A DNA stretch of 64,000 nt from an uncultured Bacilli bacterium (lineage in GTDB: Bacteria; Bacillota_I; Bacilli_A; RF39; UBA660): assembly GCA_934141535.1 (NCBI GenBank), contig CAKPCH010000004.1, forward strand, positions 56,755-120,754. The letters are read 5' to 3'. Both the position numbers and the translations under genes were made by a program. How positions within the stretch are numbered: the first letter of the stretch is position 1; each line of letters opens with the position of its first letter. The notes beneath the pieces were generated by a model, which saw only the letters and a program-made list of their open reading frames with translations, had not been told where the DNA came from and searched no databases. This document shows, one piece after another, positions 4,965-52,155 of the stretch.

Positions 4965-4965
4965 T

Positions 4966-8390: not shown

Positions 8391-8561
8391 AATTCACCTC
8401 GCTAAATATTTTATCATTTTTTTTACTTTTGTCAACATTTCTTTTAAATATCATATATTATAGCAAAAGAATGATAGTGTATGTGAAATTTTATTTTGCT
8501 TATCATTCTTTTTTCGACATATATTCTTTACAATCTATTATATATTATAATTGGTGATAAT

Positions 8562-9819: not shown

Positions 9820-9877
9820 TTAATAAATTTATATATTTTTATCTAATTTTATGATAAAATGTATATAGGTGATTTTT

Positions 9878-10291
9878 ATGGAACAATTAACACGTAGTGA
9901 ACTTAGAAAAAATATAATGACTATACTTTATCAAGTTAATGTTTATGAAACTAATAAAGTAGAGTATAATATAGAAGATATTATAAAAGAGGTAAATCCT
10001 ATAGATAATGAATTTGTTAAAGATATAGTATATGGAGTAATAGTTAAAAAAGATGAAATAGACAAGCTTGCTAATGAATATCTAAATAAATGGACTATAG
10101 ATAGATTAGGTAATACTGATCAAGCAATCATTAGAATGGCTATTTATGAATTATTATATACTAATACTCCACCTATTGTAGTAATTAATGAAGCAGTTGA
10201 ACTTGCTAAAAATTATAGTGATGATGAAGTTAAAAATATGATTAATGGAGTACTAGATAAAATATATAAGGAAAGAGTAACTCATGAATAA
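9878..10291 (+). CDS. nusB: Transcription antitermination factor NusB
   Basis: Size and conserved NusB layout; sits in the canonical nusB-xseA-xseB order; RBS aggtga. Confidence 0.8.
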   Translation: MEQLTRSELRKNIMTILYQVNVYETNKVEYNIEDIIKEVNPIDNEFVKDIVYGVIVKKDEIDKLANEYLNKWTIDRLGNTDQAIIRMAIYELLYTNTPPIVVINEAVELAKNYSDDEVKNMINGVLDKIYKERVTHE

Positions 10292-11564
10292 TAAGTATTT
10301 AAGTATAAGTGCTATAAATAGATACTTAAAAGCAAAATTTGATAGTGATGATAATTTAAGAGTAGTATATTTGAAGGGTGAAATATCTAATATAAAGTTT
10401 CATTCTACTGGACATATATACTTTTCTTTAAAAGATGAAACAAGTAAAATAAATGCTATTATGTTCTCTAGTAGTGCTAAAAAATTATTATTTAAGCCAA
10501 CTGATGGATCTAAAGTACTTGTAACTGGTAGAATTAGTGTATATGAAGCATCTGGTGGTTATCAAATTTATGTTGATGAGATGCTAGAAGATGGTATTGG
10601 TAATTTATATATAGCATTTGAAAAATTAAAACAAGATTTAGCAAAAGAAGGATTATTTGATGCAGCTCATAAAAAACCAATACCTAAAATACCTAGTAGA
10701 ATAGGTGTAGTAACTGCACCTACAGGAGCAGCTATAAAAGATATATTATCTACTATTAAAAGAAGATTTCCTATAACAGAAGTTATACTTTTTCCATCTC
10801 TTGTACAAGGAGAAGCAGCAGCACCCGATATAGTAAAGAATATTAAGCTTGCTCAAAACTATGATTTAGATGTTTTAATAGTTGGTAGAGGTGGAGGATC
10901 AATAGAAGATCTTTGGCCTTTTAATGAAGAGATAGTAGCGCGTGCTATTTACGAATGTAAAATACCTGTTATAAGTGCTGTAGGACATGAAATAGACTTT
11001 ACAATAGCAGATTATGTAGCAGATATGCGAGCACCCACTCCAACAGGAGCAGCAGAAATGGCAGTTCCAAATATGAGTGATATTATTAATTATATAAATA
11101 ACTTACAAATAAGATTAAATGAAGCTATAAATAAAAAAATTAATTATCAAAAATTATATTTAGATTCAATTAAAAACTCATATGCAATTAAAAACCCATT
11201 AATAATGTATGAAAATAAAAAACAAGCACTTGATATATTAATAGATAAATTAAATAAAGTACTAGTAAAAAACTATGAGAGTGCTAAACATAAATTTGAG
11301 TTATTAAAGAATAATTATATTCTAAATAATCCAAATATTCTTTATAAAGAAAAAATTGTAAAATTAAATAACTTAATAGAAAAGTTAGAACTAGTAAATC
11401 CACTTGGAATTTTAAAAAGAGGATACTCTTTAACATATAAAGATGATAAAATAATTAGTAATATTAAAGATATAAAGGTTAATTCAAAATTAACAGTAAA
11501 ATTATATAATGGAGATATATTTGTTACTGTAAATGAAGTAAAGGAGAATAGTAATGGCAAATAA
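10284..11564 (+). CDS. xseA: Exodeoxyribonuclease VII large subunit
   Basis: N-terminal OB-fold region (VWVKGEISN-like YLKGEISNIK) and catalytic core; 426 aa; followed by xseB. Confidence 0.85.
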   Translation: MNNKYLSISAINRYLKAKFDSDDNLRVVYLKGEISNIKFHSTGHIYFSLKDETSKINAIMFSSSAKKLLFKPTDGSKVLVTGRISVYEASGGYQIYVDEMLEDGIGNLYIAFEKLKQDLAKEGLFDAAHKKPIPKIPSRIGVVTAPTGAAIKDILSTIKRRFPITEVILFPSLVQGEAAAPDIVKNIKLAQNYDLDVLIVGRGGGSIEDLWPFNEEIVARAIYECKIPVISAVGHEIDFTIADYVADMRAPTPTGAAEMAVPNMSDIINYINNLQIRLNEAINKKINYQKLYLDSIKNSYAIKNPLIMYENKKQALDILIDKLNKVLVKNYESAKHKFELLKNNYILNNPNILYKEKIVKLNNLIEKLELVNPLGILKRGYSLTYKDDKIISNIKDIKVNSKLTVKLYNGDIFVTVNEVKENSNGK

Positions 11565-11778
11565 AGAAAATGTGAAATTTGAAGACAAAATAAAAGAACT
11601 TGAAACAATAGTAAGTGAATTAGAATCTGGAGAAATAGACTTAGACTCTTCTATTGAAAAATATACATGTGCTATGAAACTTGTAAAAGAATGTGATGAA
11701 AAATTAAAAGAAGTAGAAGATAAAGTAAATAAAATTGTAACTAAGGATGGCTCTTTAGAAAATTTTGATGTAGAATAA
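11554..11778 (+). CDS. xseB: Exodeoxyribonuclease VII small subunit
   Basis: 74-aa helical protein (FEDKIKELETIVSELESGEIDLDSSIEKY) overlapping the xseA stop. Confidence 0.8.
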   Translation: MANKENVKFEDKIKELETIVSELESGEIDLDSSIEKYTCAMKLVKECDEKLKEVEDKVNKIVTKDGSLENFDVE

Positions 11779-18671: not shown

Positions 18672-19469
18672 ATGAAAATAAATCTATCTGACATATTACA
18701 CGAATTAGGTATATCTAAAGTAAAACTAGCTAAATTTTTAGGTGTATCAAGACAAATGATATATAATTATCTAGAATTAGATGATATTAATAAATGGCCA
18801 AAAGATAAAAAAGTATTATTATTAAACTTATTAGGCGTTAAAAATATAGAAGAAATGGAAAAAATTAAAATAGATACTGACTATATTACTGCAGTTGAAC
18901 TTAGATTAAATAGTTTGTGTGATAGCAAAAAAGAAGAAGTTAATGGAGTAGGGGGAGACTTGTTAAATGGAATAAGTCCCCAAAATCAAGAATTATTTAT
19001 TGGTATTATTGATTTAATAAAAGAATATTTAGAAGATAATGGTAAAGAAGGATTTAATATAATTAATTATTTTTATCATTATTTACAAGTTATGAATAAT
19101 ACAAAAGAATTAAAATACATTTTAGCATATGTAGCAAAAGAAACAGGTTTTGAAAAGCCAATGGAATTCGCATTTGATGAAGATGAACAATTTATATTTG
19201 AAAGTGTAATGTTCTCTGCAATGGTATTATATAGAAGTGGTAAAGCTTCTAAAACAAAATTAGCAGAATCACATAGAAGATTTGTAAATCAAATTGAACA
19301 AAAACAAGAAGATAAATTAAGTCGTACTATGGAACTTAATAATGTTAAAGTTCAAGCATTAAAAGAACTTGGTTATACTGAAATAAATGAAAACAATGCT
19401 ACAGAAGTATTTGAAAAAATAGCAGAAATTCAATCAAGAAAAACAGCTTTTAAAAAATTAGATGTATAG
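18672..19469 (+). CDS. HTH (XRE-type) domain protein, function unknown
   Basis: N-terminal LSDILHELGISKVKLAKFLGVSRQMIYNY helix-turn-helix; strong RBS gaggagg. Confidence 0.5.
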   Translation: MKINLSDILHELGISKVKLAKFLGVSRQMIYNYLELDDINKWPKDKKVLLLNLLGVKNIEEMEKIKIDTDYITAVELRLNSLCDSKKEEVNGVGGDLLNGISPQNQELFIGIIDLIKEYLEDNGKEGFNIINYFYHYLQVMNNTKELKYILAYVAKETGFEKPMEFAFDEDEQFIFESVMFSAMVLYRSGKASKTKLAESHRRFVNQIEQKQEDKLSRTMELNNVKVQALKELGYTEINENNATEVFEKIAEIQSRKTAFKKLDV

Positions 19470-20105
19470 TTTATAACATCTTATTTTTTTGTACACTTCC
19501 CCTATTCTAAATAAAATAGCAAAATAGGGGAGTATCAAAGAAAGAAATCAATATGGATAATCATACATAAATTAGTTTGCCGATTGCTTAAAATTAACAT
19601 TGTTATTAAAATTAATTTATGATATATAATAATAAATAGTAAATATTTAAAAAATATTTAAAAAATTTAAAAATAAAATTTATATATTTAAAGATTGATC
19701 AAGTAAAAATAATTAATTACATATTTATATAACAATTTATATTGTATACAAAAAATAATAAAAATATAAACTTAATTTAGATGAATAATTAACCATTAAA
19801 TTAAAATTGCTTATTGTCCTACAATATATATTATGTTAACTTGTATAAAATGATTAATATGAGACGTTATCTAGGGTCTTTAAACTCTATAAAATCTATC
19901 TCATCGCCTTGCTTATCTACGTATGTACTTTTATATACTTTATCACAATTATTTATTATATCTAGATAATATAAGAACTCATTTTATACTAAATACCCAA
20001 ATGAGAAAAGTTATTTGATTTCTAGAATATTAAATGAAATAAATAATATTAATTAAATATGTATATATGTTAGTTTTTAGTAAATAATATAACTGGGTGA
20101 TTTAA

Positions 20106-20216
20106 ATGAAAAAGAATAATAAACAATCAAAAACTAACATGAATAATAAAAATTATAATTCATCTAGTTCAAGAGAAAAAAGTTCTAAAACTGAATCTAA
20201 TTTAGATTGTAAATAA
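20106..20216 (+). CDS. Candidate 36-aa small basic Asn/Ser/Lys-rich protein
   Basis: ATG 8 nt after a gggtga RBS; followed at once by a strong hairpin terminator. Absent from the ORF track because it is short. Confidence 0.3.
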   Translation: MKKNNKQSKTNMNNKNYNSSSSREKSSKTESNLDCK

Positions 20217-20225
20217 CCCACAATA

Positions 20226-20262
20226 AAAAGAGATACTTCATATATCTCTTTTTTGTATATAC
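20226..20262. terminator. Rho-independent terminator, usable by both the small ORF and convergent zupT
   Basis: aagagata-cttcata-tatctctt hairpin plus T6. Confidence 0.55.
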
Positions 20263-20268
20263 CCTACT

Positions 20269-21018
20269 CTAACTAAATAATATATGATTTATAATCATTA
20301 AAAGAGAACCATATATTATATATTTAAATGTATTTTTTTTATTTGTTTTTATAGCTTCTTTATATAATTCATTTATAGCTATATTTACCATCATTCCTGC
20401 TATTATAGCATATATTATTCCTAATATTGTATTATCTATATATTTAGATAAAAGTAGATATGATAGTAAAGCACCTAATGGTTCTGATATAGCTGAAATT
20501 AAAGTATATAAGAATGCTTTTATTTTACTATTAGTAGAATAATATATTGGGATTGCTATTGATATTCCTTCTGGTATATTATGGAGTGCTATAGCAATAC
20601 TTAATGTTATTCCTAGCTTTATATTATTATTTGAAGTAATAAATGTAACAATACCCTCTGGTATATTATGAAGAATTATTACAAGCATACTAATTATTCC
20701 TAATTTATATAGTTTTAAACTATTTTTAGAAGTTTTTTCTACTTTTTTATCTACTATATTAGAAATTATTATTCCTATTATAAAGCCTATAATAATTAAA
20801 ATGAATGTTATTGGTATAGAATGTTTAGTTATTATAGCTTTTAATGAACTAGGTATTAGATCACTAATAGATACTGTAGCCATTACTCCTACTGCAAAAC
20901 CTAATGCCTTACTTATTATATCTTCCCTATTTCTTTTTATAAATATAAATAGGAAGCCAATTAGAGTTGATATACCCGCCATTGAAGATAATAAAAAAGC
21001 ATATGCAGTATTAGTCAT
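20269..21018 (-). CDS. zupT: ZIP-family zinc transporter
   Basis: Two HNIPEGI motifs (LHNIPEGI twice) in an 8-TM protein of about 250 aa. Confidence 0.8.
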   Translation of the reverse strand: MTNTAYAFLLSSMAGISTLIGFLFIFIKRNREDIISKALGFAVGVMATVSISDLIPSSLKAIITKHSIPITFILIIIGFIIGIIISNIVDKKVEKTSKNSLKLYKLGIISMLVIILHNIPEGIVTFITSNNNIKLGITLSIAIALHNIPEGISIAIPIYYSTNSKIKAFLYTLISAISEPLGALLSYLLLSKYIDNTILGIIYAIIAGMMVNIAINELYKEAIKTNKKNTFKYIIYGSLLMIINHILFS

Positions 21019-32430: not shown

Positions 32431-34587
32431 TTATAAATTAGATTTTAAAACTTCAATTACTGGACGAACTCCGTAAGCTCCACTTGAACTTACTTTAGTT
32501 TGATAAGTTTGAGCTACTAAGGTACCACTACCGTTAGAATATCTAGAATATGTAAAACTCACTGCCCAAGCAGCATGATCTGATTTAGTATATTTTGTTA
32601 ATGCACAAGAGGTTGTTGTCCAATAACCCCAAATGATTACATCTGAATTATATAAGCAACCAAAGTTTTTACAATCACTACTTGTTCTATCAAATAGCCA
32701 GCCATATTTACATCCACTTGTATTTCCTTTTTCATCATCATCATTATAATAACAAGTACTACTTGCAGTAGTTGTGTTAGTTTCAAAATAAAAATTACCT
32801 GGTGGATCAGTTACTTCATTAAAAGTTGTATTACCTGTGATTTTAGCTATCTCACCCGCAGAAATAAGCCTTGCCTTATAATCAGCATAATCAATATTGT
32901 ATTTAGATTGACTGGGCTGAGCTGATTGATCTAGTGAATAAGAAGTTGGCGTTTCTACTCCTATCCAAGATGATGTATCAGTTTTTAATTGTTCTAATAC
33001 TTCTTTAGGACCAGTTGTAGAACTTCCACTAGAATTCCATGCTATAGTTGATGTTGTATTATGATCAAGTATTAAATTTAACTTATCTCCACCATCATCA
33101 TTAAATGCATAAAACTTCATACATCCTGATTTTACTCCAGCATTACTTTGTGAATCTGTATAATCTGTACAAGTTGTTCCTTTGTCTACATCAAAATAAA
33201 CTATTTCACCGTTAGAATATGTTTTCACTCCGTTACCAATAGTAATATCACCACTTACATTAGGTATTGTCAATAATTTAGTAGTTGTATCATATATATA
33301 GTCTACATCTTTAGTTAATACTGTATCTCCCATAACAATCTTAGGATTACCTAAATCAATATTTGCTGTATATGTATTACCTTCTATTGCTTCTTTATTA
33401 CAATTAGTACATGTCACTCCATCATATGTTACTTTAAATATTTGTTTATATTCAAAACCTATATTAAAACTTTGAGGTTCACTAGTTACTAAACTATCAT
33501 TTATTCCATCTTTATATTTAATCGTTACATATATTTTTTTAGTTACTCCATTTGTACAGTTATCACCATCACATACTGGTATTACATCATTTTCATTATA
33601 ATTATCTATTGTATAATCTAAATTAGTATCTGAACTTAAAGATGATTTTGATAATGTTATTACTGGGCGAATACCTGGTGATGTAACATAAACGAAGTCG
33701 TTACCCAAATAATTGCTATAATGCACATCCCACACACGAGTATAATCATTAATATAAAGTGAAACAGTCCAATAACTCCAACCTTCTTGAACTGGATGAG
33801 TTGCATTTCTTAAGTAGTCACATAACCATATTGGCAAACCTGAAATAGTTGTATTACTAAATGTTTTACCTGATGCTGTAGCTATCTGATATACGGTTGG
33901 AAAAATTACTTCTACTCCTTCTTTATTAAATATACTTTTTATGTGGCCTAAATAATCTTTTCCTTCTGGCGCATCACTTCCAGTGGTCGCTATATTTTTA
34001 CATGTTTTTCCATTTGCTCCACCATCTGTACACCATTTTATTTTTTGCGGTACATATGAATCCATAAAGTTTTCTTTCATGATTAAACTTACTGTGTCTG
34101 TATTATTTTCTAGAACAAAGAATGTATTTGAATAATTGTCTCCTACTTGGCATGTATATTCATCACCATAATTAAAGTTCCCACTTGGTACATTGCCTGT
34201 AGTTGCTGTTGTTACTGGAGTACATATTGGAGTTTGTGTAAGTGCTCCCATTTTTACATTACCTAAATTAGTTATATCTACTTCATATTTTACATATGAA
34301 TCTTTACTTGGTAATACTACATCTCCAAATATATTAGATACGTTATATTCTTCAGTTCTTGATATAGCACCTCCATTTGTAGAATTTACTTTTATACCAG
34401 TTAATCTTACTGTTTTATCTACTCTTATCATAGCTATATTTTTCATAACTAAGTTTGAACTAAATGAAGCAAATCCTATAGTTAAACTTGTTACTAATAT
34501 AGCACATATTACTATTAAATATTTTGAGATCTTTTTTCTCTTTATAAAACTAAAATTATTAAATCCATAATTATTTTTATGCCTCAT
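32431..34587 (-). CDS. Large secreted/surface protein carrying two copies of a Cys-containing domain shared with the prepilin-like protein at 39402-40388
   Basis: N-terminal signal-anchor; residues ~120-315 are about 70% identical to the C-domain of the 328-aa pilin-like protein (CTPVTTATTGNVP ... FFVLENNTDTVSLIMKENF ... GKDYLGHIKSIFNK ... GIRPVITLSKS). A diverged second copy ends YGVRPVIEVLKSNL. Confidence 0.6.
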   Translation of the reverse strand: MRHKNNYGFNNFSFIKRKKISKYLIVICAILVTSLTIGFASFSSNLVMKNIAMIRVDKTVRLTGIKVNSTNGGAISRTEEYNVSNIFGDVVLPSKDSYVKYEVDITNLGNVKMGALTQTPICTPVTTATTGNVPSGNFNYGDEYTCQVGDNYSNTFFVLENNTDTVSLIMKENFMDSYVPQKIKWCTDGGANGKTCKNIATTGSDAPEGKDYLGHIKSIFNKEGVEVIFPTVYQIATASGKTFSNTTISGLPIWLCDYLRNATHPVQEGWSYWTVSLYINDYTRVWDVHYSNYLGNDFVYVTSPGIRPVITLSKSSLSSDTNLDYTIDNYNENDVIPVCDGDNCTNGVTKKIYVTIKYKDGINDSLVTSEPQSFNIGFEYKQIFKVTYDGVTCTNCNKEAIEGNTYTANIDLGNPKIVMGDTVLTKDVDYIYDTTTKLLTIPNVSGDITIGNGVKTYSNGEIVYFDVDKGTTCTDYTDSQSNAGVKSGCMKFYAFNDDGGDKLNLILDHNTTSTIAWNSSGSSTTGPKEVLEQLKTDTSSWIGVETPTSYSLDQSAQPSQSKYNIDYADYKARLISAGEIAKITGNTTFNEVTDPPGNFYFETNTTTASSTCYYNDDDEKGNTSGCKYGWLFDRTSSDCKNFGCLYNSDVIIWGYWTTTSCALTKYTKSDHAAWAVSFTYSRYSNGSGTLVAQTYQTKVSSSGAYGVRPVIEVLKSNL
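33880..34240. repeat. DNA-level repeat (copy A), about 85% identical to 39640-39990
   Basis: Direct comparison of 34021-34240 with 39770-39990 and of 33880-33990 with 39650-39740 shows long runs of identity (for example cttactgt.tctgtatt.ttttctag.acaaagaatgtatttg). Confidence 0.7.
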
Positions 34588-39401: not shown

Positions 39402-40388
39402 TTAACCTAACATAGATTTTGAAATTGTTATAACTGGACGAAGACCATAGTTGTCAGAATTGTTGACTTCGTCGCGATTGCTAAAGTAACCATTATAGTA
39501 AACGCCCCACGCGTAGTAAGAGTAATCATCAGTAGGAGTTGTTGTCCAATATCCATATACTGGATGGGTTGTATCTTTTAAATTATCATATAACCATATT
39601 AGTAAAGCTCCTCCTTTATTGCCCGCTGCTATATATATTTGATCTTTTGTTGGAAAACTTACTTCTACTCCATTTTTATTAAATATACTCTTTATATGTC
39701 CTAAATAATCTTTGCCTTCTACAGCATTACTTCCTATTGCTGTTATATTTTTACAAGTTGTATTGATTATGCTTCCATCTGTACACCAAGCTACTCCTGA
39801 TGGCACATATGAATCCACAAAGTTTTCTTTCATGATTAAACTTACTGTATCTGTATTGTTTTCTAGTACAAAGAATGTATTTGTGTAACTATCTCCAACC
39901 TTGCATGTGTATTCATCACCATATGCATAACTTCCTGTTGGCACGTTCCCTGTTGTTGCTGTAGTTACTGCTGTACATACTGGATTGAATTGCTCTATTT
40001 TTCCATTATTATATGAATATGCTGCATCTGATACCTTAAAATTTGAAATACCTGTTATTTTCCCATTCGATAATAATATCTTACTACCTACATCTGGAGT
40101 TATTCCATTAATTTCTATTTTAATATAATCAGTAGTTCCATCACATTTTAATCCTTCACTTTCTACTACACATTCTGTTGGATTAAAGTTTGCCCCTGGA
40201 TGTACCATATTATATCTAGCTATCTCATTTTTTACTTGATCTAAATATAATTCTATACTTCTTTCTGTTGAATTATTTTTACTATCCTTTATTATATTTA
40301 ACACTACTGGTGTAGCTATTAATGCGATAATTGCAAGTATTACGATGACTGCTAATAACTCTATTAATGTAAAACCTTTATTTTTCAT
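39402..40388 (-). CDS. Type IV prepilin-like protein with a Cys-containing C-terminal globular domain (paralogous to 32431-34587)
   Basis: MKNKGFTLIELLAVIVILAIIALIA is a class III (prepilin peptidase) leader/methylation motif; C-terminal domain CTAVTTATTGNVP ... YGLRPVITISKS. Confidence 0.7.
   Translation of the reverse strand: MKNKGFTLIELLAVIVILAIIALIATPVVLNIIKDSKNNSTERSIELYLDQVKNEIARYNMVHPGANFNPTECVVESEGLKCDGTTDYIKIEINGITPDVGSKILLSNGKITGISNFKVSDAAYSYNNGKIEQFNPVCTAVTTATTGNVPTGSYAYGDEYTCKVGDSYTNTFFVLENNTDTVSLIMKENFVDSYVPSGVAWCTDGSIINTTCKNITAIGSNAVEGKDYLGHIKSIFNKNGVEVSFPTKDQIYIAAGNKGGALLIWLYDNLKDTTHPVYGYWTTTPTDDYSYYAWGVYYNGYFSNRDEVNNSDNYGLRPVITISKSMLG
39640..39990. repeat. DNA-level repeat (copy B), about 85% identical to 33880-34240
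   Basis: See copy A; the same conserved blocks in the same order on the same strand. Confidence 0.7.
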
Positions 40389-42120: not shown

Positions 42121-43371
42121 TTATAATGACCAATAAATTACATCACTCTCAAATTTATAATCTTTGTATATTGAATACAAATCTAATATTATTTTTTTAG
42201 AACATTTTTTATTAAAGTAGCTCATTATTTTTTCTTTATTCATACTTCTGTATTTATCATGTGGAACTGCGATTATCAGTATATCCAAATCTTGCAATTT
42301 CTCGTAATTATTAAAATAGGTATTTTTGTCAAATAACATATAATCCGAAATCCTACAATCATAATTTTGTTTTTTTAACTCACGATAGATTATATCAACC
42401 TTAGTATTTCTAACATCATCTGAATTTGCCTTATAAGAATAACCTAAAATTCCTACCTTAATATTGTTATTGTTTTTTATATCAGCTACCATCTCATTCA
42501 AACTATTTACTATAAATAAAGGAATATTCTCGTTTGTTTTTCTTGCTTGTTTTACTATATTCATATTATATCCATATTTGTTTCCTAAATCAATAAGATA
42601 ATACGGATCGATGCCAATACAATGACCTCCAACTAAGCCTGGAAGAACGTCAACAAAATTCCACTTTGTTTTTGCGGTTTCTAAAACATCTATTGTTGAT
42701 ATCTTCATTAAATGGCACAATTGTGAGACTTCATTAACAAATGCAATATTTAAATCCCTCTGAGAATTTTCAATAATTTTTGACAGTTCTGCGACTTTTA
42801 TGCAACTAGCTCTATACAAACTAACATTAGATATTAAACTGTATAATTTTTCAACTTGGTCTAAAACAAAATTATTTTGCGCTGAGATAACTTTAGTAAC
42901 AGAATTAATAGTATGAAGATTATCAGATGGGTTTATTCTTTCAGGAGAATATCCAACAAAAAAATCGACATTATTCTTTAACCCACTATATTTTTCTAAT
43001 AATGGAATGCATATATTTTCTGTTACGCCAGGATAATAAGAAGATTCAAATATTATTAGTGAATTTTTTTTAAAATTATACCCTATTGTTCTACAGGCTT
43101 CAATAACAAATTCCAAATTTGGTCTATTATTATCGTATACAGGCGTTGGGACTGTAACTATGATTGCATCTGACTTGCCAATACATTTGTCATTATAAGT
43201 ATAAACAATATTACAGTTTTTATTATTTTTGCTTAAAGTTTTAATTTTATCATTATCAATATCATATGCAAACACTTTTTTAGTTTTAGCAAATTCATTT
43301 ATTAAAGGTTGTCCAACATATCCAACACCAACTACTGTTATTGTAAAATTATTATCTCCTATTTCTTTCAT
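42121..43371 (-). CDS. NDP-sugar (UDP-glucose/UDP-N-acetylhexosamine) 6-dehydrogenase family protein
   Basis: N-terminal ITVVGVGYVGQPL Rossmann motif and a catalytic-Cys context (GGHCIGIDPYY); 416 aa. Confidence 0.8.
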   Translation of the reverse strand: MKEIGDNNFTITVVGVGYVGQPLINEFAKTKKVFAYDIDNDKIKTLSKNNKNCNIVYTYNDKCIGKSDAIIVTVPTPVYDNNRPNLEFVIEACRTIGYNFKKNSLIIFESSYYPGVTENICIPLLEKYSGLKNNVDFFVGYSPERINPSDNLHTINSVTKVISAQNNFVLDQVEKLYSLISNVSLYRASCIKVAELSKIIENSQRDLNIAFVNEVSQLCHLMKISTIDVLETAKTKWNFVDVLPGLVGGHCIGIDPYYLIDLGNKYGYNMNIVKQARKTNENIPLFIVNSLNEMVADIKNNNNIKVGILGYSYKANSDDVRNTKVDIIYRELKKQNYDCRISDYMLFDKNTYFNNYEKLQDLDILIIAVPHDKYRSMNKEKIMSYFNKKCSKKIILDLYSIYKDYKFESDVIYWSL

Positions 43372-43372: not shown

Positions 43373-44191
43373 TTATCCCATCACTTTCAACAAAGGAGCA
43401 AGATACTTCTCACTTCCATAATTAATACCATTATAATCTTTAGCATTTCCATGATAATCCGTCCCTGCCGTTTTTATACAATCGATAAAAAGACTGTTTG
43501 TATCCAAATAATTACTAAATTCAATTGAATTTTTAGGATTAATGACTTCCAATCCATTTAATCCATAGTTTAAAAAAACTTTTACAATTGATTCAAATTC
43601 AATAATAGATGAACATTGATTTAAAAGTGTCATGGGATGAGCTAAAACAATTATAGAATTAAGTGATTTCAATATGTCAATTGTTTCTTTAACTTGTAAT
43701 TTCTTTTGAACTATATATGACTGACTTCTAGAACCAATAAAGTTTTTATAAATAAAATCAACATCATCAACATTAAATTTTTCTAATAATATTTTGGCTA
43801 TAATCCGTTTATTTAACAGATCTTTTGTGTACTTTTTTATGTCATTATCATCAATAACAATTCCATATTTATATTCTAATATTTTTATAGCAGCCCTACA
43901 AATGTAATCATTTTCTAACTTTATTTGTCTTAAATATCCATTAAGTTTTTTTAAATCATTAACTCCATATGCTAACAAATGAATACTTTTGTTATTATAA
44001 TTACAATCAATTTCAATACCGTTTATTATAGTTATATTATTGTATAATGATGTTACACTCTCGCATATGTTATGATCAGTAAAAGATAAATACAATATAT
44101 TATTGTCTAATGCTGTTTTAATTAAATCGTCTCTACTTGAAATACCATCACTTAATGTACTATGAACATGTAAATCAAAATTTATAGACAT
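43373..44191 (-). CDS. PHP-domain metal-dependent phosphoesterase
   Basis: FDLHVHSTLSDG N-terminal PHP motif, internal ... AHP ... and GTDYHG. Start placed at MSINFDLHVHS. Confidence 0.7.
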   Translation of the reverse strand: MSINFDLHVHSTLSDGISSRDDLIKTALDNNILYLSFTDHNICESVTSLYNNITIINGIEIDCNYNNKSIHLLAYGVNDLKKLNGYLRQIKLENDYICRAAIKILEYKYGIVIDDNDIKKYTKDLLNKRIIAKILLEKFNVDDVDFIYKNFIGSRSQSYIVQKKLQVKETIDILKSLNSIIVLAHPMTLLNQCSSIIEFESIVKVFLNYGLNGLEVINPKNSIEFSNYLDTNSLFIDCIKTAGTDYHGNAKDYNGINYGSEKYLAPLLKVMG

Positions 44192-44630
44192 TTTTACACA
44201 ACCTTTCATTTAATTCCCAAAGTGCATTTTTATTGCTATCCCATTCAAACATTTTCATTGCATCACTATAATTAACCCATTTAAAAGATTTATGTTCTTC
44301 AGATATTTTTATTTTGGCATCATCCACACAAACACCAAATGAATATTCTTTTACGATATATGTTTCTTTTTCAAACTTTGTACCTGAAATATTAATTGAA
44401 GGCATGCTAGCAAATGATGATAATTTTACTAAATTTGTGTTGTATGGAATATTACCTTCTTCATACATTTCCCTTCGTGCAGCCTGTTCTATACTTTCAC
44501 TGTCCTCTACTCCACCAGCTATTCCTTGCCATACATTTAAATCCTCTCTTAAAAATAAACAATATTCAATACAATTTAATTTTGTATTCATTCTATATGG
44601 AATAACTAAAACTTGTATTGGCTTCCTCAC
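44175..44630 (-). CDS. Nudix hydrolase, NudB-like (dihydroneopterin triphosphate pyrophosphatase-like), copy 2
   Basis: Nudix box GGVEDSESIEQAARREMYEEGNI (Gx5Ex7REUxEExGU). Layout and C-terminal ALWELN segment resemble NudB; about 45% identical to 48370-48819. Confidence 0.65.
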   Translation of the reverse strand: MRKPIQVLVIPYRMNTKLNCIEYCLFLREDLNVWQGIAGGVEDSESIEQAARREMYEEGNIPYNTNLVKLSSFASMPSINISGTKFEKETYIVKEYSFGVCVDDAKIKISEEHKSFKWVNYSDAMKMFEWDSNKNALWELNERLCKNVYKF

Positions 44631-45585
44631 TATTAACCTCCTTAATGATATTTATAACACTATTTTTCTTACTTAATAGCCACTTTATCATTTCAAATTT
44701 GTATTTTGCATAACTAATATCATCATCGACATCAAGACAGTAAAGGCTATTTAAGGATATATAGTTAAATAAATTCAAGCCATCTAATAAGTATTCATTA
44801 GTAATATAATAAACATTTTTATATCCCTCAAGAAAATTTTTAATATTATATAAAATTTTTGTATCATCAAAATTTTTATCATAACATATCATACTAATTG
44901 CACGATATATTTCATATTGTAAAGGAAAAATGCAAGTTTGGTCTAAATCTAGACACACTAATTTATTTGTTTTGATAATGTTATCAAGGTAAAAATCGCC
45001 GTGCACAATTTTATTGTTATATTTTAAATAAATTTGTTCAATACTCCTAAAGTCAACTTTTTTTAATAGTTTTAACTTTGACCTTAAAATTTGAATTGCC
45101 TCTGTGTTACCTGTTTTTACATGCAAACTAATTAAATTATTAATTCTATCTATATTGGGAGTGGTCATATTTAAATTTTTTGTATCATAGTTTTTGATAT
45201 TTTTAATAATAGATGAATTTAGGGTTTTATGTATATTCCCAAGCAACTCTCCTAGTTTATACTGCTCTTGAGAACCCAATCTTTGTTTATTCAAATGTAG
45301 ACCATCAATATATTCATATAAAACGTAATATTTATCATTATATGTAAAATATGTTCTACCATCTATTGTAAAAATAATCTTGGCTGATAAATTATTGCTC
45401 GATAAAATATTTTGAACAACATTTATAAACTCAAGCCTATTTAACTTATCAACAGCCATTTCTTTTAATAGATATTTCCTATCTTTTGTAGTTAATATCC
45501 ACTTTTTGCAAGCATATCCTAATGATAAAGGCTGTTTTTCTATTATAAAAATATTATAAAAATCATTAATAATTTTATTTTTCAT
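44593..45585 (-). CDS. APH-fold small-molecule kinase (aminoglycoside/choline/sugar-kinase phosphotransferase family)
   Basis: HGDFYLDNII (HGD catalytic loop) and DLDQTCIFP (DxD metal-binding). RBS gggaga; overlaps the DegT stop by 11 nt. Confidence 0.65.
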   Translation of the reverse strand: MKNKIINDFYNIFIIEKQPLSLGYACKKWILTTKDRKYLLKEMAVDKLNRLEFINVVQNILSSNNLSAKIIFTIDGRTYFTYNDKYYVLYEYIDGLHLNKQRLGSQEQYKLGELLGNIHKTLNSSIIKNIKNYDTKNLNMTTPNIDRINNLISLHVKTGNTEAIQILRSKLKLLKKVDFRSIEQIYLKYNNKIVHGDFYLDNIIKTNKLVCLDLDQTCIFPLQYEIYRAISMICYDKNFDDTKILYNIKNFLEGYKNVYYITNEYLLDGLNLFNYISLNSLYCLDVDDDISYAKYKFEMIKWLLSKKNSVINIIKEVNSEEANTSFSYSI

Positions 45586-46744
45586 TTAATTCTCCCAAAA
45601 CTTCATATAATGATTTAACAAATGAATTACATATATATTGATTATCTTTTTTAGACATGTTGAAATGAATGGGTAAGTTTATTATTCTCCCACCTAATTC
45701 ACGCGAAATGTTTTTATATTTAGTATCTATATGTTCATCAACATATTTATGAATCATAAATGTGGGTTCATTAGCAACGGTAGTTTTTATTTGATACTTT
45801 TCTTCTAAAATTTTCATAATTTTATTTCTGCTGTTTCTAGTAAACATATCATTTAATATGATAGTATAATAGGTATAAATATGATAGTAAATTTCATCAA
45901 AAACTGGCAAAGAAAAATATTTGCTATACTTTTTTAACATATTATTTCTTTGAAGTGCTACTTTACGTCTTTTTTTGTTATATTTATCAATTTTTTTTAA
46001 TTGTGATATACCCACGCTGGATTGAACTTTTGATAATTTATAATTCGAGCCCCAAGCATCCATTTTTCTTCCACCAAATTCTCTTCTTTTTTTCATTTTT
46101 TCATAATATTCATAATTATTCGTTAAAATCATACCGCCTTCTCCAAGAGTGGATATGTTTTTTTTGCTTTGAAAGCTAAAAACTGATATATCTCCCAAGC
46201 AACCGACTTTCTTTTTATCATAAGATGCACCACAACATCTAGCGACATCTTCTATTATAACGATATTAGAATCATATTTTTTTATAATATTAATAATTTT
46301 ATTCATATCAGCAGATACACCATTCATATGTGTAACAACAACTGCCCTGGTATTTTTTGTTAAATTATTTTTGATTGAATTTGCCGAAATATTTAAAGTT
46401 TTATCATCAACATCACATAATACTAATTTTGCTGGAGTTGACAATATTGATAAATGTGTACCATAGAAATTTATTGCAGATGATATGACTTCATCATTTG
46501 GTTTTAATTCAAGAACTTGCATTGCAATATCAATGCCACTATTACAACCGTTTACAGATAATGCATATTTTTTCCCTATATATTCTGAAAATTTTTTTTC
46601 AAATTCTACGCGATAATCAATGGTATCACATACTTTCCAGTTGCATAAACTATGCATCGACTTAATAACATATATATAGTCAGTTATGGTATATTTAAAA
46701 TTTGGAGGTTGAGACTGATAACTTTTTTTCACTATTAAACACAT
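45575..46744 (-). CDS. DegT/DnrJ/EryC1/StrS-family PLP-dependent sugar aminotransferase/dehydratase
   Basis: YALSVNGCNSGIDIAMQVL, DEVISSAINF, and the SFQSKKNIS region (PLP-binding Lys in SxxxxK context); 389 aa. Confidence 0.75.
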   Translation of the reverse strand: MCLIVKKSYQSQPPNFKYTITDYIYVIKSMHSLCNWKVCDTIDYRVEFEKKFSEYIGKKYALSVNGCNSGIDIAMQVLELKPNDEVISSAINFYGTHLSILSTPAKLVLCDVDDKTLNISANSIKNNLTKNTRAVVVTHMNGVSADMNKIINIIKKYDSNIVIIEDVARCCGASYDKKKVGCLGDISVFSFQSKKNISTLGEGGMILTNNYEYYEKMKKRREFGGRKMDAWGSNYKLSKVQSSVGISQLKKIDKYNKKRRKVALQRNNMLKKYSKYFSLPVFDEIYYHIYTYYTIILNDMFTRNSRNKIMKILEEKYQIKTTVANEPTFMIHKYVDEHIDTKYKNISRELGGRIINLPIHFNMSKKDNQYICNSFVKSLYEVLGELNEK

Positions 46745-46784: not shown

Positions 46785-47756
46785 TTAGTTACTATAATTA
46801 GAAAATATGTTGCTTTTATGCACTAATATTTTTGCGGTAGATAAATAAAAATCACTTTGATGGTCATTAAATTTCAATAATTCATTCAGAAAAAATTGTT
46901 CCTTAGATATAGCTGAAATGTGTTGTCTTTCTATTTGCGATATAATTTCCTCTACATCCAACAACTCATTAAAAACTTGCATGCTATTTTTTTTGTCATA
47001 ACATGTAACAATAATTTCAGAAAGTTCTGCTTTTGAAACGAATTTACAATTAAAGGCATTAAGTAAATTAAAAACAGTCAAATTGAGTTTTTTGGAATCC
47101 AGGCAATTGTCAGCATTTTTTTGATATAATTCTTTATCAATATACGGTAATATAAGGTTCTTAAGATTATAATTTAATTCTAATGTTGGATATCTTAAAC
47201 CTAGATTAGAAGGAAAACCATATACAATTAATTTTCCATTATAATATCTTAATCCTATTCTATCATTTCCCATATAATCATATTTTTTGGATAATAAATA
47301 AAATAATAAATTTGTCGTTTTACCACTACCACTATTGCCAATAAAAACAGTTGCTTTATTTGTTTTTTTATTTACCACTGATGCCCCATGAACAAAATAA
47401 ATTCCAATATCTTCATAATATTTGGCAAAAATATCTATTATTATTCTCTTTAGATTAAGACAATGATCTGCATTAAAATGATCATAAATAAATTTAATAT
47501 TATTTTTTTTATTTGAAAAAATCAATGTATTTGGCGCCATAATAAAACATTTATTTTTAGAATATTCAATTGTTTCTTCAGCAACAATATCAAGAGTAAC
47601 TAATTCAGTTGGAATGTTTTTCTCATTATAATCACTAATAACAAAACACCCATTAAAATGTTGAGACATTTTTGTATTAAGATTGGGTACACTTGTTTTA
47701 ATTATTATTTTTAGCCCATCTTTAAATATTTCATAGCAGTTCATTTTAAGCTTCAT
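46785..47756 (-). CDS. HPr kinase C-terminal-domain-like P-loop protein
   Basis: HGASVVNKKTNKATVFIGNSGSGKTT resembles the HprK/P C-domain (H-G ... GxSGxGKS/T). Confidence 0.4.
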   Translation of the reverse strand: MKLKMNCYEIFKDGLKIIIKTSVPNLNTKMSQHFNGCFVISDYNEKNIPTELVTLDIVAEETIEYSKNKCFIMAPNTLIFSNKKNNIKFIYDHFNADHCLNLKRIIIDIFAKYYEDIGIYFVHGASVVNKKTNKATVFIGNSGSGKTTNLLFYLLSKKYDYMGNDRIGLRYYNGKLIVYGFPSNLGLRYPTLELNYNLKNLILPYIDKELYQKNADNCLDSKKLNLTVFNLLNAFNCKFVSKAELSEIIVTCYDKKNSMQVFNELLDVEEIISQIERQHISAISKEQFFLNELLKFNDHQSDFYLSTAKILVHKSNIFSNYSN

Positions 47757-48369: not shown

Positions 48370-48819
48370 CTATTTTAAATCAGAATTTAATAATCTTTGA
48401 TTTAATTCCCAAAGTGCAGTTTTATTACTATCAAATTCTAATTTCCTACATGCTTCATCAAATGGAAGCCATTCATAACAATTGTGTTCACTAGATAATT
48501 TAATACTACTATTTTTTGTAAATACTCCAAATGAATATTCTGTAACAACGTACACGTCATTTCCCCAAGTGAATTTTCCTGTTATATTAATAACAGGTAT
48601 TGAGCAAACAGATGATAGTTGAAAAATATTATTTGCCTCTATATTTGTTTCTTCAAAAACTTCTCTTTTTACTGTTTCAATCAAGGTTTCTTCATCTTCC
48701 ACTCCACCTGATATAGCCTGCCATATTTGCTTTTTTTTTCTATAAAATACACAATATTCATATTCGTCTTTCTTGTTTTTTCTATATAAGAATATTAATA
48801 CTTGTTTTGGCTTTCTCAT
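48370..48819 (-). CDS. Nudix hydrolase, NudB-like, copy 1
   Basis: IWQAISGGVEDEETLIETVKREVFEETNI Nudix box (compare E. coli NudB FWQSVTGSVEEGET ... REVKEE). 2-nt gap to the upstream radical SAM gene. Confidence 0.7.
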   Translation of the reverse strand: MRKPKQVLIFLYRKNKKDEYEYCVFYRKKKQIWQAISGGVEDEETLIETVKREVFEETNIEANNIFQLSSVCSIPVINITGKFTWGNDVYVVTEYSFGVFTKNSSIKLSSEHNCYEWLPFDEACRKLEFDSNKTALWELNQRLLNSDLK

Positions 48820-48820: not shown

Positions 48821-50017
48821 TTATTTTTTCTCCTTTATTTCATTTATGCTTTTTATTAATGATTCTATCCCACCTTCATTATATATTTCATAGGCAATTT
48901 CTAATAATCTGTTTGCTCTATTTTTAAATGGATCACATACTGATGGACAAATGTCTGGAATTTTATCATCAATTTTATTTTCTAAAATTTTCCCCCAAAT
49001 TTCACTAAAACTTTGTTTAATCGTCGAACCATAATTATATCCGTTTTTCTTTGGATGATAATTACATAAATAAACTTTGCCATCGGATGAAATGTTACCT
49101 ATTAGATAATGGACAAAACACTTATTAAATTTTCTGATTTTGTCATCATCACTCATAACATTATGAATTTCAACTACTGAAAAGAATTCATCACATAATT
49201 CTTTTTTTACTTGTTTAATTTGTTCACTTGCAATATTTTTTTCTTCATCGTTCATGACAAGTAAAGATGCAATATCTGTTTTGAATCGCAAATAGTGAAC
49301 ACCTATTCTTTTCAGTTTTTTAGCTAGCCCATAAATCTGGTCATAATTATATTGGTTAATAACATAACCTACGTTAATATCTATATTGCTATTATTTTTT
49401 TTCTTTGATTCATATAAATCCTCTATATTTTTTAATATAGTTTCAAAGCTATTAGTGTTGCTACCATTACATTTTAATTTATTATATGTTTCATGATTTC
49501 CAGCATCTATACTTATTAATATATATCCCAGTTTTAATAATGTCTCATGCATTTTTTTATCAATAAGAATACCATTTGTAAATAAGCCAACACGAATATT
49601 ATGTTTTGACAATTCTTCTATAGCATACAAAACAGAATCTTTTGCAATTAAAGGTTCTCCTGTTATTCCTGAAAAAGTAACATTTTCAACTCTGTATTCC
49701 TTATTACAATTATTTTTGTAATCATAACCCATTTTTTTGTAAGTTATAATATCATTTACTATCTTAATCATGTTTTTTTTCTTAACCAAGGCATTATCTA
49801 GTAATGTCTCTTTATTTTCTTTAGAGGAAACATATCCACCTATACACCATTTACAGTTTAAATTACAGATACTAGATGTGTGAATTAATATTTCATACGG
49901 TGGTAAAATTTCACCATTAAAAATATTTAAAATGCGAGAAAAATGTCTATCCAACATTTCCATCTCATTAAATCTGCCAGGTAAATCATCTCTATAAACT
50001 TCTCTTAATTTATTCAT
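48821..50017 (-). CDS. Radical SAM enzyme (about 400 aa) of unknown specificity
   Basis: CNLNCKWC (Cx3Cx2C) about 45 residues into the protein, SGITGEPL (SAM/glycine-rich motif), LFTNG, and C-terminal Cys CNYHP ... CPSVCDP. Start placed at MNKLREV after a ggagtg RBS; the ORF track starts 21 nt upstream. Confidence 0.75.
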   Translation of the reverse strand: MNKLREVYRDDLPGRFNEMEMLDRHFSRILNIFNGEILPPYEILIHTSSICNLNCKWCIGGYVSSKENKETLLDNALVKKKNMIKIVNDIITYKKMGYDYKNNCNKEYRVENVTFSGITGEPLIAKDSVLYAIEELSKHNIRVGLFTNGILIDKKMHETLLKLGYILISIDAGNHETYNKLKCNGSNTNSFETILKNIEDLYESKKKNNSNIDINVGYVINQYNYDQIYGLAKKLKRIGVHYLRFKTDIASLLVMNDEEKNIASEQIKQVKKELCDEFFSVVEIHNVMSDDDKIRKFNKCFVHYLIGNISSDGKVYLCNYHPKKNGYNYGSTIKQSFSEIWGKILENKIDDKIPDICPSVCDPFKNRANRLLEIAYEIYNEGGIESLIKSINEIKEKK

Positions 50018-50191
50018 TATTAACACTCCATAAATCACTTATATGTATATATTACCATTTTTCAAAAAAAAGTCAATTGTTGTAAGGCAATCGTGTAAAA
50101 AATAATAAATAAATCTACTTAACAATTAACTATCATAGTATTATTTTAAAAATAAGTCATTCTATTCTCAAAAAATCTAACGCATTTTTTA

Positions 50192-50422
50192 TTAATAAAC
50201 AATATTTACTAATATTACATCTTCACCTATTTTTTCTATTTGTTCCCATTTAACTACCATTTCTTTTTTATTTGTAAAATAAGAAAGTAAAAATCTATGT
50301 TTTTCTACTATTAATCCTGTTGTTTTACCATTATCATCTATACTCATATCTATTATATTGCCTATATTTTTCCCATCTAATAAGTTTATTACTGTTTTAT
50401 TTTGTAAATCAGACATGCGCAT
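50192..50422 (-). CDS. YlmC/YmxH-family PRC-barrel sporulation protein
   Basis: MRMSDLQNKTVINLLDGKNIGNIIDMSIDDNGK matches the YlmC/YmxH family; 76 aa. Confidence 0.7.
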   Translation of the reverse strand: MRMSDLQNKTVINLLDGKNIGNIIDMSIDDNGKTTGLIVEKHRFLLSYFTNKKEMVVKWEQIEKIGEDVILVNIVY

Positions 50423-51378: not shown

Positions 51379-52155
51379 CTAACTAATTTTATTTTTAATA
51401 TTTTTTAAAGCACTCTTCTCTAATCTTGAAATTTGTGCTTGAGATATACCTATTTCACTTGCTAATTCCATTTGTGTTTTACCTGTTATATAACGTTCTT
51501 TAATTATATATTTTTCTTTTGTATTTAATGTTCTTATTGCTTCTTTGAGTGCTACACTATCATCTATATTTTTCATTTCATTTTTCTTATCTTCTAATTG
51601 ATCTTCTAAATATATAGTATCTCCACCATCATTATATAATGGTTCAAATAAACTTACTGTATCTTTCATACTATCTAGTGCATTACTAACTTCATATTCT
51701 GTTAAATTAAGAGCTTTAGATATTTCACCTATACTTGGTTCTTTATTATATTTATTAGTTAATTCTTCTTTTTTTAATAAAGCATGGTATGCTATATCTT
51801 TAATAGAACGTGCTACACGTATACTATTATTATCTCTTAAATATCTTTTAACCTCTCCTAATATCATAGGTACTGCATATGTACTAAATTTAACATCAAA
51901 TTTAAGATCAAAATTATCTATAGCTTTAATTAGCCCTATACAACCTACTTGAAATAAATCATCCATATTATCTATTCTATTATTATATTTTTTTAATAAA
52001 CTTAATACTAATTTAAGATTACCATTTACTAAATCTTCTTTAGCAAACATATCTCCTTCTTTATATCTTTTAAATAATTCTACCATCTCACTATTATCTA
52101 AAACTTTTAAATTCGCAGTATTCACGCCACATATTTCTACTTTATGACGTGCCAT
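51379..52155 (-). CDS. sigG: RNA polymerase sporulation sigma factor SigG
   Basis: Near-identity to the B. subtilis SigG N-terminus (KVEICGV.T..L.VL...EM..LF ... DLFQVGCIGLIKAIDNFDL ... VKFSTYAVPMI.GE..RYLRDN); region 4 HTH at the C-terminus. Confidence 0.85.
   Translation of the reverse strand: MARHKVEICGVNTANLKVLDNSEMVELFKRYKEGDMFAKEDLVNGNLKLVLSLLKKYNNRIDNMDDLFQVGCIGLIKAIDNFDLKFDVKFSTYAVPMILGEVKRYLRDNNSIRVARSIKDIAYHALLKKEELTNKYNKEPSIGEISKALNLTEYEVSNALDSMKDTVSLFEPLYNDGGDTIYLEDQLEDKKNEMKNIDDSVALKEAIRTLNTKEKYIIKERYITGKTQMELASEIGISQAQISRLEKSALKNIKNKIS

Follow-up and report, generated by a model that had tools for sequence, protein, structure and literature searches.

The window analyzed here, a stretch of 64,000 nucleotides from an uncultured Bacilli bacterium (GenBank assembly GCA_934141535.1, contig CAKPCH010000004.1), contains a minus-strand operon of nine genes, the first of which encodes a radical S-adenosylmethionine (SAM) enzyme, here called rSAM. 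Most likely, rSAM begins a pathway that starts from a nucleotide-linked sugar and ends in an amino sugar or aminonucleoside, because across phyla it travels with an aminotransferase of the DegT family, a Nudix hydrolase and two kinases. With regard to the protein itself, the data are best explained if rSAM is a founding-type member of an uncharacterised twitch-type family, with a predicted fold related to those of DesII and BlsE plus a putative four-cysteine auxiliary cluster. This reading builds on what the analysis showed about the family, the motifs, the predicted fold, the linkage of genes and their fusions.

Pairs of radical SAM and DegT-family enzymes build unusual sugars of macrolides, aminoglycosides and blasticidin. 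On present evidence, such sugar-tailoring pairs are the known part of the system, the new part being an rSAM family that has a putative auxiliary cluster and is constantly accompanied by a Nudix hydrolase and two kinases. No description of the cassette was found by literature searches, many subscription papers lying outside their coverage. The family is widespread (255 clusters at 50% identity) and occurs in gut Bacilli and Clostridia, Listeria, the Bacillus cereus group, soft-rot Pectobacterium and many Streptomyces, and the fixed five-gene cassette implies a widespread amino sugar or aminonucleoside. Among known compounds related to such molecules, kanosamine, puromycin and 3′-amino-3′-deoxyguanosine are antibiotics or chain terminators. 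At stake are a class of compounds and a radical reaction on a nucleotide-linked sugar, both of which would be new, as well as a possible connection with TIR fusions of the immune type.

Motifs, classification and predicted fold of rSAM

The Pfam model Radical_SAM (PF04055) matched rSAM with 48.2 bits (cut-off 29.5; E 1.8e-12), and this match above the gathering score together with the CX3CX2C motif places the protein in the radical SAM superfamily; the family signal exceeds chance by a wide margin. When 1.84 billion representative sequences were searched with a profile, 255 proteins matched at E ≤ 1e-30, and at E ≤ 1e-10 the number was 3,317. Motif conservation was read from an alignment of 20 homologs with 36–83% identity, residues being numbered from the ATG at position 50017. 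The cysteines of the cluster motif CNLxCxWC (C51, C55 and C58) are invariant, and the GGE-type SAM motif FSGxxGEP (FSGITGEPL in the window protein), FTNG and SxDA are kept. An earlier note on this DNA, made from the letters alone, had named CNLNCKWC, SGITGEPL, LFTNG, CNYHP and CPSVCDP, and all of them were found; its placement of CNLNCKWC about 45 residues in has to be shifted to about residue 51 from the ATG.

Also invariant are four C-terminal cysteines. C300 (in KCFVHY) and C318 form C-x12-G-x4-C, the first half-motif of SPASM/twitch domains, and C357 and C361 sit within CPxVCDPFKxRxN. The Pfam SPASM model matched partially, with 25.1 bits (cut-off 21.5) over profile positions 1–45 of 67 and residues 307–350 of the 405-aa open reading frame (ORF). 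With four conserved C-terminal cysteines, the protein does not have the seven-cysteine SPASM pattern of two auxiliary clusters; the earlier note, too, had seen no full seven-cysteine pattern, had listed the cysteines of CNYHP and CPSVCDP correctly and overlooked C300. The four-cysteine pattern would fit one fully Cys-ligated auxiliary Fe-S cluster of the twitch type instead. BtrN, SpeY and anaerobic sulfatase-maturating enzyme (anSME), dehydrogenases of the twitch or SPASM type, share the auxiliary-cluster motif C-x(9-15)-G-x4-C with the rSAM family, and a fully Cys-ligated auxiliary cluster, as a possible electron acceptor in the oxidation of an alcohol to a ketone, would extend this likeness.

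In a scan against NCBIfam, no model reached its cut-off with rSAM. The scores were 78 bits for the tungsten-cofactor maturase model (cut-off 380), 60.8 for viperin (NF038283; 180), 42 for the twitch family NF033640 (170), 38.6 for anSME (TIGR03942; 349) and 30.9 for MoaA (TIGR02666; 284). These curated cut-offs uphold the earlier rejection of viperin-, MoaA- and anSME-like identities. For MoaA the rejection is based on the score, and a public label of one cluster member as 'GTP 3′,8-cyclase' (MoaA) is a mis-annotation. An identity with viperin was rejected on the score, the partial match of the PADLOC pVip model (62 bits) and the extra Cys domain; one with anSME on the score, the missing seven-cysteine SPASM pattern and the fact that no sulfatase gene was found nearby. 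Prokaryotic viperins lack the auxiliary-cluster domain, and viperin forms a didehydro-nucleotide, whereas rSAM is coupled to an aminotransferase, which needs a ketone. Other public names given to homologs are either unspecific or incorrect ('radical SAM protein', 'SPASM domain-containing protein', 'anaerobic sulfatase-maturating enzyme').

A sequence search of the PDB with rSAM gave nothing. Folds were compared using the predicted structure, and the following figures are structural match values against known enzymes. DesII (PDB 8hzy) was the top match with 25.6 (342 residues aligned, 14% identity), followed by SkfB (24.8), BlsE (PDB 7vob; 23.3, 16% identity), SuiB (21.4), anSME (20.9), viperin (19.9), MoaA (19.6), BtrN (14.5) and AprD4 (9.9). 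DesII is the deaminase of TDP-4-amino-4,6-dideoxy-D-glucose in the desosamine pathway, and its partner DesI belongs to the DegT family. BlsE is the cytosylglucuronate radical SAM enzyme of blasticidin S biosynthesis, where it acts with the aminotransferase BlsH, and BtrN is likewise followed by a DegT-family transaminase.

DesII consists of an N-terminal domain of six helices, a radical SAM core and a β-hairpin/helix C-terminal domain, and carries a single cluster (PMC11434129). The rSAM family has the same domain layout; it differs in the four invariant cysteines that it adds, and the N-terminal domain of DesII is longer. At the pathway level, the window operon has no 4,6-dehydratase, no DesI equivalog and no DesV/DesVI, whereas its Nudix and kinase genes are absent from the desosamine pathway. 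An identity with DesII was rejected on the low sequence identity, the four extra cysteines, the missing 4,6-dehydratase and the score of the operon's DegT protein on the DesI model (106 bits, cut-off 650). In comparison with the BlsE system, the cassette lacks a cytosylglucuronate (CGA) synthase and a CMP hydrolase. The earlier suggestion of a radical enzyme for sugars or sugar nucleotides, for example a BtrN-like or DesII-like one, is supported in part.

Conservation of the cassette across genomes

A scan of one genome per species yielded 66 loci. For neighbor counts, all ORFs within 9 kb were clustered at 62 loci; these include some redundant loci and many incomplete contigs, and true frequencies are probably higher. 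The most frequent neighbors were a NudB-like Nudix hydrolase (51 of 62 loci), DegT (47), an HprK-like protein (46) and an APH-family kinase (40), followed by a nucleoside diphosphate (NDP)-sugar dehydrogenase (23), a carbamoyltransferase (16), an adenosine deaminase family protein (14) and a PHP-domain protein (11). Epimerases/dehydratases of the short-chain dehydrogenase/reductase (SDR) type are the commonest accessory neighbors. Where close homologs lack DegT, an oxidoreductase of the GFO/IDH/MocA or SDR type is encoded near them.

The 66 loci belong to uncultured Tenericutes/Bacilli (the closest, 83–85% identity), Clostridia, Erysipelotrichaceae, Listeria, Bacillus, many Streptomyces and Pseudonocardiaceae, Pectobacterium, Atlantibacter, Pseudomonadales, Elusimicrobia, Patescibacteria, WOR-3 and Acidobacteriota. 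Overall, the cassette occurs in at least eight phyla (Bacillota, Actinomycetota, Pseudomonadota, Elusimicrobia, Patescibacteria, WOR-3, Acidobacteriota, Bacteroidota), and gene tables confirmed it in Patescibacteria and Elusimicrobia. According to its gene table, the Listeria cassette additionally contains an aminoacyl-ligase-like gene, a carrier protein, NTP_transf_5 and an ABC exporter. Cassettes on Bacillus toyonensis megaplasmids are accompanied by adenylation, peptidyl carrier protein (PCP) and acyl-CoA dehydrogenase genes, and those of Streptomyces by a carbamoyltransferase and a true adenosine deaminase (TIGR01430, 278 bits, cut-off 216); adenosine deaminases were also found at Elusimicrobia, Bacilli and Gilvimarinus loci. 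The Pectobacterium cassette carries an aminofutalosine-deaminase-like gene and adjoins an integrase and a P4-like primase, and cassettes in actinobacterial metagenome-assembled genomes adjoin Abi_C and prophage-like genes. Phage and plasmid records added only the megaplasmids of the B. toyonensis group and weak phage matches. Orthologs from cultivable hosts are available for Pectobacterium carotovorum PC1 (C6DAU0/WP_015841082.1), Listeria (WP_120223096.1) and a B. toyonensis plasmid (WP_001096351.1).

At one locus (L076, positions 1–21227), the gene for a 62%-identical homolog lies amid densely packed nucleotide-handling genes: seven Nudix and five PHP genes, a RelA/SpoT homolog, CYTH, inorganic pyrophosphatase, His_Phos_1, HAD, GrpB and adenosine deaminase. 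A GFO/IDH/MocA oxidoreductase is present there and DegT is not.

Gene fusions and distant relatives

In several proteins from the profile search the rSAM domain is fused to another enzyme. The partners are DegT (P0198, P0136), extended SDRs resembling NDP-sugar epimerases/dehydratases (P0144, P0145, P0176, P0174) and Cof-type HAD phosphatases (P0180, P0182). Two further fusions join it to TIR-TPR (P0235) and to HD-CE (P0223). According to the alignment, the fused domains retain the N-terminal F-x-x-E, the cluster motif and the four-cysteine pattern. The TIR and HD-CE fusions are distant, with 150–180 bits compared to more than 280 bits for the orthologous group.

After the gene for the TIR-TPR-rSAM protein (955 aa; L081, positions 2705–10227, GCA_021777105.1) come those for a sugar-1-phosphate nucleotidyltransferase and for a TIR-WD40 protein of 1007 aa, and the locus looks like an uncharacterised immune-type system around a relative of the rSAM domain. 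The HD-CE-rSAM fusion (904 aa; L084, positions 9001–11715) is a lone gene flanked by glmM-like and htrA-like housekeeping genes. Some 12 representatives of 50%-identity clusters have 870–1020 aa with the rSAM domain in the C-terminal part, four of which were checked (P0223 by Pfam; P0204, P0235 and P0248 by alignment).

Proposed pathway

Reaction type, order of steps, substrate and product are what we infer from these observations. In the proposed reaction, the SAM-bound cluster would generate a 5′-deoxyadenosyl radical, which would abstract a hydrogen from a carbinol carbon in the sugar moiety of a nucleotide-linked substrate. From there, a ketone could be reached either by passing an electron on to the auxiliary cluster, i.e. 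dehydrogenation as with BtrN, or by loss of the neighboring hydroxyl group, i.e. 1,2-diol dehydration as with BlsE and AprD4. Dehydrogenation to a ketone is the reaction of BtrN, anSME and DesII acting on TDP-quinovose, 1,2-diol dehydration is that of AprD4, and BlsE acts as a 1,2-diol dehydratase. DesII dehydrogenates or eliminates from an α-hydroxyalkyl radical at C3 (PMC11434129). A keto compound is indicated as the product of rSAM, because the rSAM domain of relatives is fused to DegT or SDR proteins and DegT alternates with reductases at the loci, and aminotransferases and reductases both need a ketone. Subsequently, DegT would aminate the ketone, the NudB-like Nudix hydrolase would cleave the pyrophosphate link and the PHP enzyme would take off the phosphate that is left. 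Re-phosphorylation of the product would then fall to the APH-like and HprK-like kinases, either for a next pathway step or for protection of the producer; the other core genes fit such a release and re-phosphorylation. For the general mechanism of ketone formation followed by amination, we see a little better than an even chance.

As substrate, we slightly favor an NDP-hexose or NDP-hexuronate made by the operon's own NDP-sugar 6-dehydrogenase, so that the product would be a free or phosphorylated compound of the amino(deoxy)hexuronate type. This assignment is tentative and falls somewhat short of an even chance; a nucleoside triphosphate (NTP) is a somewhat more doubtful candidate. In support of an NDP-sugar are the dehydrogenase, which scores above the TIGR03026 cut-off and occurs in the operon and at 23 loci, the SDR fusions and neighbors, the nucleotidyltransferase beside the TIR-TPR-rSAM gene, the HAD fusions, the folds of DesII and BlsE and the nearest solved relatives of DegT.

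Several points weigh against the proposed NDP-sugar pathway. Nothing in the sequence names a substrate, the use of an NDP-sugar being deduced, and the auxiliary cluster is predicted solely from conserved cysteines. The Nudix proteins are more similar to NTP and diadenosine tetraphosphate (Ap4A) pyrophosphatases than to NDP-sugar hydrolases, the adenosine deaminases at 14 loci and the aminofutalosine-deaminase-like hydrolase of Pectobacterium point to adenine nucleosides, and the extra kinase of the window is similar to nucleoside or nucleotide kinases. The cassette contains no glycosyltransferase that could take an NDP-aminosugar, and more than half of the loci lack the NDP-sugar dehydrogenase. 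Finally, redundant loci and many incomplete contigs enter the locus counts.

A precedent for the order of steps is given by the roles of Pur10, Pur4, Pur7 and Pur3 and by the parallel with RifL of the UDP-kanosamine route (PMC11641026). In the Pur systems (puromycin, A201A, cystocin, ADG) and in RifL/K/M/N, as proposed here, a keto group is introduced into a nucleotide-linked sugar by an oxidant, after which an aminotransferase acts. Compared by functional class, the likeness extends to a Nudix hydrolase or phosphatase that releases the product and, in the Rif route, to a kinase acting thereafter. In contrast to the radical SAM enzyme here, the Pur/Rif oxidant is NAD-dependent and of the GFO/IDH/MocA type; some relatives of rSAM keep a GFO/IDH/MocA protein instead of DegT, and no GFO/IDH/MocA gene was detected by the Pfam scan of the window. 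Also, the Pur/Rif phosphatase is an IMPase or HAD protein rather than a PHP enzyme, and two unrelated kinases are core members of the cassette here.

Alternative explanations

If rSAM instead acted on an NTP, probably ATP, it would oxidize or dehydrate the ribose in place of the NAD-dependent Pur10 and thereby lead to an aminonucleoside like puromycin or ADG. DegT would form an amino(deoxy)-NTP (cf. Pur4), Nudix would detoxify it to the monophosphate (cf. Pur7) and PHP would remove the last phosphate (cf. Pur3); in Listeria, Bacillus and Pectobacterium the product would then be acylated by means of the neighboring ligase and carrier-protein genes. Besides the Pur cassette as precedent (PMC11641026), this sequence of steps agrees with the NudB-/Ap4A-hydrolase-like Nudix proteins, the dNK/VakA-like kinase of the window, the resemblance of the PHP protein to pAp phosphatase, the weak viperin similarity of rSAM, and the aminoacyl-ligase, PCP and adenylation genes at the loci of the three genera. 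The bona fide adenosine deaminase in Streptomyces clusters (278 vs 216 bits) and those in Elusimicrobia, Bacilli and Gilvimarinus also fit, as does the aminofutalosine-deaminase-like gene of Pectobacterium; however, such deaminases could merely dispose of 5′-deoxyadenosine, the by-product of radical SAM reactions, and the window operon has none. Moreover, the NDP-sugar 6-dehydrogenase of 23 loci, the extended-SDR fusions and the neighboring sugar-1-phosphate nucleotidyltransferase would be left without a role, and the likeness to Pur4 and Pur7 is one of functional class, not of sequence. We therefore regard the complete NTP route as rather unlikely. A reversed order, in which DegT first aminates an existing keto-sugar and rSAM then removes the amine by radical elimination, giving deoxygenation as in the DesI/DesII system, would be suggested by DesII being the top structural match and by its DegT-family partner DesI. 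It is very improbable, given that the 4,6-dehydratase required to supply the keto-sugar is absent from the window operon and most loci, that rSAM shares 14% identity with DesII, which has no auxiliary cluster, that DegT reaches 106 bits on the DesI model (cut-off 650), and that rSAM-SDR fusions suit a ketone product that is subsequently reduced.

A different kind of alternative concerns the biological role and is compatible with NDP-sugar or NTP chemistry: the operon could be an anti-phage or antibacterial conflict system analogous to viperin, in which a toxic modified nucleotide or nucleotide-sugar is made and Nudix and kinases protect the producer. The relatives with the same motifs fused to TIR-TPR (beside a TIR-WD40 gene) or HD-CE (alone among housekeeping genes) speak for such a role, as do the PADLOC pVip match of 62 bits, the weak match of the neighboring kinase to VakA, the position of several loci beside integrases, Abi_C, P4-like primase or ORF6N, and the patchy distribution over many phyla. 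On the other hand, these fusions are distant (150–180 vs >280 bits), the window operon is flanked by housekeeping genes and homologs are nearly absent from phage records. ABC exporters, carbamoyltransferase and carrier-protein genes resemble ordinary secondary metabolism, and a PADLOC scan of 136 neighboring proteins gave scattered defence matches, with no baseline for comparison. Taken together, a conflict system is quite unlikely. Hardly less remote is the idea that the rSAM family forms a second, viperin-independent lineage making toxic modified nucleotides or nucleotide-sugars for conflict, which we consider improbable; in this case, the operon would make an amino(deoxy) antimetabolite, Nudix and kinases would provide self-protection, and infection would trigger the TIR-TPR and HD-CE fusions as versions made of a single gene. 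The patchy distribution, island contexts and TIR/HD-CE fusions allow a conflict or antibiotic role. Least probable of all is that rSAM matures peptides or proteins in the manner of SkfB, anSME or the sactipeptide synthases. Its partners are nucleotide and sugar enzymes, and every maturase model stays far under its cut-off (e.g. anSME 39 vs 349). There is no RRE/PqqD domain, the N-terminal extension comprising just ~45 residues, and the operon leaves no room for a precursor gene, the ORFs of the 175-bp leader having at most 7 codons. On the same grounds (scores, missing RRE/PqqD domain, no coding room in operon or leader), a maturase of peptides that are made by the ribosome and modified after translation (RiPPs) was rejected as identity of rSAM.

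Organization of the operon and gene boundaries

The nine genes are tightly packed, with gaps of at most 40 nt or overlaps (Table 1). As claimed in the earlier note, rSAM leads the operon and a Nudix gene follows directly, though 1 nt after the stop codon (48819 vs 48821) and not 2 nt. Terminator-like sites inside the operon were absent before the last gene. The operon ends with the NDP-sugar 6-dehydrogenase gene, because the next gene downstream, which was considered as a member and rejected, encodes the housekeeping lipoteichoic acid (LTA)-anchor glycosyltransferase IagA/BgsA (506 bits, cut-off 460). The operon is located between sporulation/cell-division genes and LTA genes.

Table 1. Coordinates of the operon genes and of sites in and upstream of the rSAM gene, in window positions
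Feature	Position	Strand	Description and evidence
Promoter-like site, TTGACT-16-TGgTAATAT	50049..50076	−	TTGACT, 16 nt, TG-extended TAATAT; consensus match 5′ of first gene
rSAM gene	48821..50017	−	short conserved N-terminal helical extension, radical SAM core, twitch-like C-terminal domain
Codons of C51-x3-C55-x2-C58 (CNLNCKWC)	49844..49867	−	predicted ligands of SAM-binding [4Fe-4S] cluster; invariant in 20 homologs
Region of C300, C318, C357, C361 and CPxVCDPFKxRxN	48935..49120	−	putative auxiliary Fe-S cluster site; alignment, Pfam SPASM match
Nudix hydrolase A, NudB-like	48370..48819	−	Nudix box intact; Pfam NUDIX 42 bits; NudB model 65 vs 103 cut-off
Small P-loop kinase-like protein, 188 aa	47796..48362	−	weak dNK/AAA_18/VakA similarity; close relatives only
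HprK/PEPCK-like P-loop protein, core cassette member	46785..47756	−	GNSGSGKTT ... NDR; weak PEPCK/HprK profile matches
DegT/DnrJ/EryC1 pyridoxal phosphate (PLP) aminotransferase	45575..46744	−	catalytic Lys motif SFQSKK; Pfam 257 bits
APH-family phosphotransferase	44593..45585	−	HGDFYLDN motif; Pfam APH 39 bits
Nudix hydrolase B	44175..44630	−	paralogue of Nudix A; Pfam and NCBIfam scans
PHP-domain phosphoesterase	43373..44209	−	relative of 3′,5′-bisphosphate nucleotidase/RNase AM group; Pfam PHP 34 bits; NF041577 85 vs 400 cut-off
Nucleotide-sugar 6-dehydrogenase, last operon gene	42121..43371	−	GGHC catalytic Cys; TIGR03026 293 vs 189.8 cut-off

The rSAM ORF, 405 aa counted from GTG 50038 (50038..48821), corresponds to the earlier prediction of a protein of about 400 aa at 48821–50038. 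The gene is real, and its start codon was corrected: the true coding sequence is 50017..48821 on the minus strand (398 aa), starting with ATG 50017, because full-length homologs all have ~398 aa, GGAG is located 9 nt 5′ of this ATG, and GTG 50038 has no ribosome binding site. The 175-bp leader of the operon contains no ORF of more than 7 codons. The promoter-like site upstream is at best suggestive, because such consensus matches are not enriched in this AT-rich region (88 found vs 92 expected). Rfam families gave zero matches over the whole window, so no riboswitch names a ligand.

Translations revealed intact catalytic motifs in DegT (SFQSKK), both Nudix proteins (Nudix boxes), the APH protein (HGDxxxxN), the PHP protein (HxH), the dehydrogenase (GGHC) and the HprK-like protein (GNSGSGKTT). 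DegT did not reach any equivalog cut-off, the best being PseC (192 vs 423) with the DesI model at 106 vs 650, and its PDB neighbors are scyllo-inosose, perosamine and QdtB transaminases. The nearest equivalog of the dehydrogenase is TviB, a UDP-GlcNAc 6-dehydrogenase. For the APH-like kinase, a sequence search of solved structures gave nothing. Pfam has no family for the HprK-like protein. Its alignment displays R..IR, HA, a Walker A motif G.K..GKTT, SNDK and G.P...G.R, and its profile gave weak matches to ATP-PEPCK (8e-4) and HPr kinase (3e-3) that cover precisely this motif region. The assignment of an HprK/PEPCK-like kinase fold, held with moderate confidence, draws on these weak profile matches and motifs, because structure prediction failed (AlphaFold pLDDT, the predicted local distance difference test, 47 from an alignment of 6 sequences). 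In the 188-aa P-loop kinase the Walker A motif is atypical (GSSASGKE), with Glu replacing the usual Ser/Thr.

The best PDB match of Nudix A was 3son (hypothetical NUDIX; 2e-28), followed by Ap4A hydrolase and NudB. The structural-genomics entry 3son, a 'hypothetical NUDIX hydrolase', is ~62% identical to the Nudix protein of the Listeria cluster (L001, 13277–13735). It is a member of the cassette's Nudix family, so that a solved structure already exists for one component of the cassette.

Further observations in the window

By eye, from translations, a small YlmC/YmxH-like PRC-barrel ORF (50190–50421, minus strand) was noted just 5′ of the operon and a SigF/G-type sporulation sigma factor further 5′ (51379–52155, minus strand). 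The public genomes nearest to it carry the labels 'uncultured Tenericutes' or 'Bacilli', and sporulation-type genes are noteworthy in a reduced lineage of such low GC content (~24%).

In a profile over positions 1–64000, gene orientation changes from mostly plus to mostly minus at ~20 kb (19469–20269), where the sign of the GC skew flips and the cumulative skew peaks. Such a switch of orientation and skew is expected at a replication terminus, where forks converge.

Two minus-strand genes (39402–40388 and 32431–34587) encode proteins with a long, near-identical internal segment, …CT.VTTATTGNVP.G…YGDEYTC.VGD.Y.NTFFVLENNTDTVSLIMKENF…, and the shorter one has a type IV pilin-like N-terminus, KGFTLIELLAVIVILAIIALIA. 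The two may be paralogous pseudopilins or surface proteins.

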